From a virus (Monodnaviria > Loebvirae > Hofneiviricota > Faserviricetes > Tubulavirales > Inoviridae), in IMG/VR virus record IMGVR_UViG_2663762893_000001: DNA of 11,866 nucleotides. The stretch is one strand, 5' to 3'. The first letter of the stretch is position 1; each line of letters starts with the position of its first letter. The position numbers were made by a program, and so were the translations under genes. Under the pieces are notes generated by a model. That model had not been told where the DNA came from. It saw only the letters and a program-made list of their open reading frames with translations, and did no database searches. This document shows, one piece after another, positions 3,938 through 4,108 of the stretch.

Positions 3938-4108
3938 CTACTTGGCTCCATCTTAACAGTGGTTTTTCAATAGTTAGATTTGATGCTCATTTTTGACAAT
4001 TTAAACATTGCAAATGTATTGACTGTCAGATCTGAGCATATTACATTGTGACCATTCAATCTGCTCACAAATGACTATTGACACATATTTTGATGGGTGT
4101 GACTACTT
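3938..4108. promoter_or_regulatory. Divergent control region between regulator and Rep genes (promoters/operators, possibly a replication origin)
   Basis: 171-bp intergenic region. TTGACA at 3993-3998 and 4078-4083; TTGACT at 4019-4024 with TACATT 17 bp downstream (4042-4047). Direct repeat CAAATG..TATTGAC at 4011-4023 and 4068-4082. TGACTGTCA palindrome at 4020-4028. Confidence 0.5.

Follow-up and report, generated by a model that had tools for sequence, protein, structure and literature searches.

In the window analyzed here (the whole stretch of 11,866 nucleotides), a regulator gene and a Rep gene of what is identified as a filamentous prophage of E. coli diverge from a 171-bp intergenic region at 3938-4108. 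This region is probably the immunity and control region of the phage, a repressor switch in which a promoter for Rep (P_rep) would be governed through three operators for the divergent regulator of 148 amino acid (aa) residues. The evidence is a 16-bp motif that recurs three times at P_rep, that is selectively conserved among close relatives, and whose half-site follows the recognition helix of the regulator in distant ones. Binding, repression, cooperativity and transcript starts, as described below, are what we infer from the DNA for this switch. The genes and the features between them are as follows.

3491-3937, minus strand: regulator gene, 148 aa, XRE/HTH_3 type (Pfam HTH_3; phrog_3557, transcriptional regulator)
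3921-3936, plus strand: candidate weak fourth site, TGCTCA-TTGT-TGCCCA, with one mismatch, in the first codons of the regulator open reading frame (ORF)
3938-4108: intergenic control (putative immunity) region, 171 bp, varying as a cassette with the regulator
3946-3958, minus strand: candidate promoter and translation signals of the regulator, TG-n-TAAGAT (extended -10-like; TG-T-TAAGAT in the window) with GGAG directly after, 12 nt before the ATG
3984-3999, plus strand: putative distal operator O_D, TGCTCA-TTTT-TGACAA, at about -70..-55 of P_rep and 48 nt from the regulator ATG
4019-4047, plus strand: predicted P_rep, with -35 TTGACT (4019-4024), a 17-bp spacer and -10 TACATT (4042-4047); scan score 9/12, predicted start at about 4054
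4023-4038, minus strand: putative central operator O_M, TGCTCA-GATC-TGACAG in the minus-strand reading, at -31..-16 in the -35/-10 spacer
4062-4077, plus strand: putative proximal operator O_P, TGCTCA-CAAA-TGACTA, at about +9..+24 of the predicted P_rep transcript
4076-4083, plus strand: second TATTGACA, abutting O_P, invariant across all immunity groups
4109-5161, plus strand: Rep gene (pII-type HUH initiator; Phage_CRI, E = 1e-73; G2P_X_C), the proposed regulated target

Putative operators and promoter between the regulator and Rep genes

The two genes flanking the region are, as the earlier note had read them, a divergent XRE regulator and Rep, according to profile matches to HTH_3 and Phage_CRI. 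The regulator matched Pfam HTH_3 (PF01381) over residues 27-68 with 38.1 bits (cut-off 23, E = 1.6e-9). In its AlphaFold2 (AF2) model, the helices of the helix-turn-helix (HTH) span residues 28-35 and 39-46, the latter (VSTLVRIA) being the predicted recognition helix, and the C-terminus was modeled with low confidence as two helices.

When the region was searched for repeats, the unit TGCTCA-N4-TGAC was found at 3984-3997 (plus strand), 4025-4038 (minus strand) and 4062-4075 (plus strand). These three exact copies compare with 0.03 expected by chance, none of 200 shuffles reached three, and all four matches with at most one mismatch in the 11.9-kb window fell within 3921-4075. Read as 16-mers, the sites are pseudo-dyads of two 6-bp halves with a 4-bp gap (TGCTCA-N4-TGACNN), and their centers (3991.5, 4030.5 and 4069.5) are spaced by exactly 39 bp. 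The candidate site at 3921-3936 was only partly conserved in other TGCTCA-type phages. It sits between the ATG codons of Met1 and Met9 of the regulator; Met9 is invariant in 18 regulator homologs, and the plasmid homologs described below begin there.

Other repeats had been proposed for this region by the earlier note, whose idea that repeated elements overlapping the Rep promoter would be operators for the regulator is now backed by selective conservation and by co-variation with the recognition helix, but which had picked the wrong unit. The three TTGAC(A/T) hexamers that it listed are present (TTGACA at 3993-3998, TTGACT at 4019-4024 and TTGACA at 4078-4083), and three of the 11 TTGACW hexamers of the whole window lie inside the 171 bp, where about 0.16 would be expected from the window density; nevertheless, they are not the unit. 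The same applies to the repeat CAAATG-TATTGAC (4011-4023) and CAAATG-AC-TATTGAC (4068-4082), both copies of which exist but give way to TGCTCA-N4-TGAC as the operator unit. In the second CAAATG, the first four letters are the N4 spacer of O_P, which is variable, and the TG belongs to a half-site; this CAAA is replaced by TAAA, AAAG or GAAG in relatives. The supposed palindrome TGACTGTCA at 4020-4028 is likewise present and is re-read here as the -35 hexamer abutting an operator half-site. As a promoter element of its own, the TTGACA at 3993 was rejected, being CTGACA in most relatives, including Yersinia pestis, and part of an operator half-site.

The Rep promoter predicted by the earlier note was supported, since the scan recovered TTGACT-17-TACATT with 9/12 and its position is conserved in 13/13 of the loci defined below, in all of which a TTGNNN-16/17-TAnnnT element scoring 9-10/12 lies 70-86 nt from the regulator ATG. 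The number of promoter-like scan matches in the region was no higher than in shuffles. A second plus-strand match, TTAACA-16-TAGATT (3953-3980), was discarded, as it recurred only in L025 among 12 relatives.

According to the proposed mechanism, P_rep would act as a sigma-70 promoter and drive the replication and structural operon, and regulator dimers would bind the three 16-bp operators TGCTCA-N4-TGACNN. Filled O_M, in the -35/-10 spacer, and O_P, at +9..+24, would keep RNA polymerase off P_rep; this occlusion is proposed because the sites at -70..-55, -31..-16 and +9..+24 occupy repressor positions. Occlusion would silence Rep along with the operon downstream of it, and hence replication and virion production, and the occupied switch would give superinfection immunity specific to the operator type. 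O_D, which lies beside the start region of the regulator itself, would probably contribute cooperative binding with O_M and O_P and/or autoregulation of the regulator, with the cooperativity between dimers probably mediated by the helical C-terminal domain of the low-confidence model.

Co-variation of the putative operators with the regulator

The same-immunity set comprised the window and nine further distinct versions of the 171-bp region, obtained from scans of viral contigs and genomes, with regulators 85-100% identical. Among these ten variants, only 2 of 30 half-site core columns varied, whereas the remaining 141 columns included 60 variable ones (Fisher p = 7e-5). Half of the N4 spacer columns (6/12) varied, and the -35 and -10 hexamers were almost invariant. 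The window and the Y. pestis region differed at two positions only, both within N4 spacers (TTTT to TTTC and CAAA to TAAA).

A heteroimmune E. coli phage (L003/L004) was 98.8% identical in DNA from the Rep ATG on, with 98.9% aa identity in Rep. Its regulator was only 40% identical in aa to that of the window, its intergenic region could not be aligned, and homology resumed exactly at the Rep ATG. Three copies of a different 16-bp motif, RGWACA-N4-TGTSAC, lie in this intergenic region. The contexts of increasingly distant regulator homologs were then compared, giving 13 loci in total (the window, L003, L025, L026, L029 and L031-L038). Apart from the sites and the promoter, the intergenic regions of the 13 loci were at or near shuffled-sequence identity, and the comparison of the window with L003, L032 and L036 gave shuffled-sequence identity. 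A distal site (at most two mismatches) was located 33-50 nt from the regulator ATG in 13/13 loci, and 45-50 nt from it in 12. The proximal site was found 113-141 nt from the regulator ATG in 11/13 loci, 113-131 nt from it in ten, and L035 and L037 have a weaker proximal copy that is visible by eye only.

Three recognition segments of the regulators were paired with half-sites as follows.

G-I-S-(V/I)-S-T-L-V-R-I: half-site GCTCA
(N/G)-V-R-T-L-V-R-I-A-T (UPφ-like E. coli phages and a CTX-like phage with RstB): GGACA-N4-TGTCC
S-V-R-T-L-V-R-L-A-S: TGCCA-N4-TGGCA

The GCTCA group includes regulators only 55-64% identical, on Photobacterium- and Aeromonas-related contigs, and next to them lie Rep proteins whose similarity is slight or undetectable, including one of the Rep_trans family. 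At the level of sequence there is a double dissociation, in which the half-site follows the recognition helix and ignores the Rep family. Alignment position 40 of the regulator (S, R or G) tracks the operator half-site, and the recognition code may be simple and transplantable, pairing S, R and G at this position with GCTCA, GGACA/TGCCA and GAACA, respectively.

The operators themselves varied in symmetry. O_D is often a perfect palindrome (TGCTCA-N4-TGAGCA) in the GCTCA group; O_M is a perfect palindrome in L031 (GGTCA-GATC-TGACC), and its spacer varies among GATC, GAAC and GAAG. GATC(T) at 4029-4033 forms the center of O_M and of the P_rep spacer; GATCT was present in six lineages with different operators, and the GATC(T) of O_M was lost in two close variants (GAAC and GAAG). 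A link of this GATC to Dam methylation may exist and is not required. The 57-bp imperfect palindrome at 3983-4039 was considered as a hairpin or origin and set aside as a by-product of two inverted operators, with a center that is not conserved and an unremarkable fold.

Several observations weigh against the repressor switch. O_M was found only in the window group and L031. Linkage can partly explain the co-variation of adjacent sequences; the co-variation argument rests on the distant lineages, because the half-site is kept or changed there in step with the helix. The conserved TATTGACA next to O_P is left unexplained by the switch. For a minus-strand regulator promoter, the scan gave no consensus match and no consensus -35. 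Conjugative MOBP/MPF_T plasmids of ~41-45 kb encode a 122-aa regulator homolog that is 63% identical and has 33 consecutive identical residues across the HTH, in a gene downstream of a resolvase gene (36370-36738 in pEC27-5, NZ_CP060877.1, L005/L006; also in many ~41-kb plasmids). TGCTCA-N4-TGAC was not found within 3 kb of this gene or anywhere on the 45-kb plasmid, so the link between helix and motif was not seen in that independent context. The plasmid gene need not be autoregulated, however, and may encode an orphan repressor; plasmid copies may silence incoming YpfΦ/CUS-1-type phages in trans, which would amount to a plasmid-borne immunity against filamentous phages. Finally, RovA of Y. 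pestis was reported to bind the putative promoter region of YPO2274, and the phage operon was derepressed without RovA (PMC4266046), so that repression may not be due solely or mainly to the phage regulator.

Three alternative explanations were weighed. It is improbable that the regulator is mainly an activator or autoregulator, for example of its own gene or by binding the spacer as MerR-type proteins do, rather than a repressor of Rep. The layout of TG-n-TAAGAT followed by GGAG is present in 12/13 loci; its assignment as the regulator promoter is uncertain, and the regulator mRNA would be nearly leaderless if it were used. In favor of this explanation, O_D lies ~40-55 bp upstream of this conserved extended -10-like element, and lambda-type repressors perform both repression and autoregulation or activation. 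A site in the optimal 17-bp spacer and another at +9..+24, however, are classic repressor positions, the protein is of the XRE type and not of the MerR type, and the module is placed as rstR/ig-2 is in CTXφ. Repression combined with autoregulation is compatible with the repressor switch and is no rival to it.

The second explanation, that a host regulator (RovA/SlyA, LexA, CRP or similar) and not the phage regulator is the main protein at the sites, is unlikely. The report on RovA speaks for it, and LexA is used at the equivalent promoter of CTXφ, according to work cited in PMC8402870. Sites for a host factor should, however, not change with the recognition helix of a phage protein inside one host species, yet in E. 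coli the phages of three immunity types each carry a half-site of their own at these positions. A scan of 3901-4130 recovered no LexA box (CTGT-N8-ACAG, at most one mismatch), no SlyA consensus (at most three mismatches) and no CRP site (at most two mismatches); one weak IHF-like match was set aside. RovA may nonetheless work through other parts of the region, for example the AT-rich ones or TATTGACA.

The sequence (C/T)(A/C)TTGACA(G/T)G, to which the second TATTGACA of the window belongs, was found beside the proximal operator in 13/13 loci, whatever the operator type or Rep family, 25-57 nt from the Rep ATG. A second Rep promoter with this TTGACA (4078) as its -35 was considered and rejected: none of the 13 loci has a -10 partner at 16-18 bp downstream, and the start in the window would fall within the ORF. 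TATTGACA(G/T)G could be an unrecognized control element of many integrative filamentous phages, for example a host-factor site or a 5'-leader signal. The Rep leader (4084-4108) contains a U-run and then a G-rich run (UUUUGAUGGGUGUG), which is reminiscent of the M13 gene II leader (UUUUUGGGGCUUUUC), and in other lineages, too, comparable U/G runs come after the TTGACA. In M13, translational repression by gene V targets the gene II leader.

A probable replication origin beyond the regulator gene

The (+)-strand origin probably lies at 3434-3479, beyond the regulator gene, and not in 3938-4108, where the earlier note had thought that the nicking origin of Rep might be contained. It would consist of two elements.

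3434-3462, plus strand: probable origin hairpin of 13 pairs, AACGTGCAGT-GTTGGTAAT-ACTGCACGTT, with the loop GTTGGT|AAT
3464-3479: palindrome right after the hairpin, GTCTCA-TTCC-TGAGAC (GTCTCATTCCTGAGAC)

The nick is predicted between T3449 and A3450 (GTTGGT|AAT). This layout is that of the M13 core origin, in which GAGTCCAC-GTTCTTTAATA-GTGGACTC is followed by TTGTTCCAAACTGGAACAA (M13 record); M13 and the window share the GTT..T|AAT(A) hairpin loop of the Ff core origin and a palindrome within 0-2 nt of the hairpin. The published nick of pII is GTTCTTT|AATA (PMC11962056). Unlike M13, the window has other stem and palindrome sequences and a regulator gene between the origin and its gene II counterpart.

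The sole sequence on the regulator side that is conserved between the heteroimmune phages is a 93-bp island at 3388-3480, with 86% identity. The fold of single-stranded DNA (ssDNA) at 3425-3495 reached -16.2 kcal/mol (z = -6.0), compared with z = -1.8 for the 171-bp intergenic region. The element at 3434-3479 is conserved in L003, L032 and L036, and the hairpin was present in every examined locus with a window-type Rep that reached far enough downstream of the regulator, and absent beside other Rep types. The hairpin-bearing loci include Rep proteins down to 80% full-length identity, plus L035, in which the match to Rep extends only over the first 62 residues. The palindrome was changed on both arms in two loci, being GTACCA..TGGTAC in one of them.

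Three of 5,426 complete E. coli genomes (E. coli 90-9280, L004 3027-7781; ETEC-2264; LR882978) contain a tandem 1,831-bp mini-element, which spans the hairpin loop, the regulator, the intergenic region and Rep and ends at nucleotide 117 of g5p. Its junction, CCTGATGGT|AATACTGCACG, is located at GGT|AAT of the hairpin loop. The mini-element agrees with the product expected from a rolling-circle start at the loop and a premature end at a TGGT|TTT look-alike in g5p, and it looks like a miniphage or RS1-like satellite that was reinserted by homologous recombination. The junction counts as a single natural event, because it occurs in only three genomes and in one immunity type.

Within 3938-4108, GTTTTTCAATAGT (3962-3974) matches 9/11 bases of the Ff site GTTCTTTAATA and 11/13 of the Ff pII nick sequence GTTCTTTAATAGT. 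As a nick site it was rejected: it has no notable flanking stem, and it is judged a chance match because it is not conserved in L003 and L029, which share the Rep. A stable hairpin with a nick sequence in its loop together with a Rep-binding palindrome was not found inside 3938-4108, and a scan with Rfam gave only a chance microRNA match (E = 0.93). The third explanation for the repeats, that they are Rep (pII) binding sites or iterons in a region holding the (+)-strand nicking origin, is very unlikely: the M13 origin is indeed upstream of gene II and the Ff-nick-like GTTTTTCAATAGT is present, but the region cannot be aligned between phages with 99% identical Rep, homology restarting at the Rep ATG, the TGCTCA motif is kept beside Rep proteins of little or no similarity, including Rep_trans, the T-run of GTTTTTCAATAGT also occurs with such Rep types, the ssDNA fold is far stronger at 3425-3495, and it is the hairpin-plus-palindrome at 3434-3479 that tracks the Rep type and whose loop the mini-element junction maps to.

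The prophage and its comparison with known systems

The element is identified as a dif-integrated filamentous prophage of E. coli of the YpfΦ/CUS-1 type because its regulator is 100% identical to that of Y. pestis YpfΦ (the equivalent is YPO2273) and because E. coli genomes and a 9,565-bp circular record match it. Similarity to 3400-5200 was found in 170 of the 5,426 complete E. coli genomes, 97 of which had at least 80% query coverage at ~98% identity or more. The circular record, NZ_CP128883.1, was deposited as an 'untypable plasmid' and is the episomal circular replicative form of the phage. Megablast and blastn searches of 3400-5200 against 50,697 phage records gave zero matches; in the collections searched, the only entries of the phage are as a prophage or as a 'plasmid'. 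The ends of the prophage are marked by two dif sites.

1668-1695: imperfect dif at the left prophage end, GGTGCGCATAATGTGCGACTCGTTATGT
11234-11261: perfect dif of the E. coli type at the right prophage end

The integration site adjoins hipBA. In strain SCU-101 the prophage is present as a tandem duplicate, and hipA is annotated as truncated. The N-terminus of Rep is MID, as in M13 gene II, and the plus-strand ORFs after Rep encode a G5P-like ssDNA-binding protein, a coat protein, a DUF2523 protein, a Zot/pI homolog and a secretin. Two accessory ORFs occupy the minus strand between attL and the origin, 1767-2870 (367 aa, phrog_17621) and 2972-3394 (140 aa, phrog_4174); in the heteroimmune variant (L003) they are swapped for others, including a SIR2-family gene and an insertion sequence (IS) remnant.

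Links have been drawn between YpfΦ and the pathogenicity of pandemic Y. pestis and between CUS-1 and extra-intestinal E. coli. In a 2014 review, the intergenic region of YpfΦ was 'believed to be involved in transcription initiation'. YPO2273 was proposed as an RstR-like repressor, a role that 'awaits experimental demonstration', and resident YpfΦ gave partial protection against superinfection (PMC4266046). No description of the operators or origin of a YpfΦ/CUS-1-type phage was found in the searchable full-text literature, which also seems to contain no account of the operator sequence, the code relating recognition helix to half-site, the predicted nick site or the heteroimmune alleles. Control of phage replication genes by repressor and operator is familiar biology, so the conceptual gain is modest. 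That the region holds more than a textbook switch, namely the TATTGACA element, a recognition code and orphan repressors on plasmids, is conceivable but doubtful. The putative operators, promoter and nick site and the natural heteroimmune alleles make the proposed role of YPO2273 directly testable, and the operator types would allow prophages to be typed by immunity group.

In a tblastn search against the 50,697 phage records, in which the inclusion of CTXφ is uncertain, the regulator matched only filamentous phages of Vibrio cyclitrophicus and one Lactococcus phage. The lambdoid or 434-type OR region resembles the switch proposed here in that divergent genes are separated by several dyad operators of an HTH dimer and one promoter is occluded, and in lambdoid and 434 repressors the recognition helix determines specificity through its first residues. 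Unlike in OR, the sites are 39 bp apart from center to center and not adjacent, there is no counterpart of Cro and no recognizable RecA-cleavable domain, and the target is the replication initiator of a non-lytic ssDNA phage.

Pf4r is likewise a filamentous-prophage repressor with repeated intergenic motifs beside its gene; it binds these motifs as a dimer and controls superinfection (PMC8402870). It differs from the regulator of the window in belonging to the P2 C-like family, in its motif and in its target, the excisionase xisF4.

A close parallel in layout is drawn with rstR/ig-2/rstA of CTXφ, where RstR represses the rstA promoter via ig-2 in an allele-specific manner (PMC11509585) and binds as a dimer of dimers, according to work cited in PMC8402870. 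Both systems have a divergent HTH repressor (putative in the window) and an HUH Rep around a short intergenic promoter region, a repressor and intergenic region that change together, allele by allele, as a cassette next to a conserved Rep, a (+) origin (probable in the window) separated from the intergenic region by the repressor gene (the equivalent of ig-1) and dif/XerCD integration. Unlike CTXφ, the window has no LexA box, its operators are simple 6-N4-6 dyads of 16 bp, its Rep and origin are Ff/pII-like and not RstA-like, and its phage encodes its own secretin. Judged in silico, the 171-bp region shows the architecture of a CTXφ-type immunity module, with divergent genes, cassette variation and multiple putative sites at the Rep promoter.

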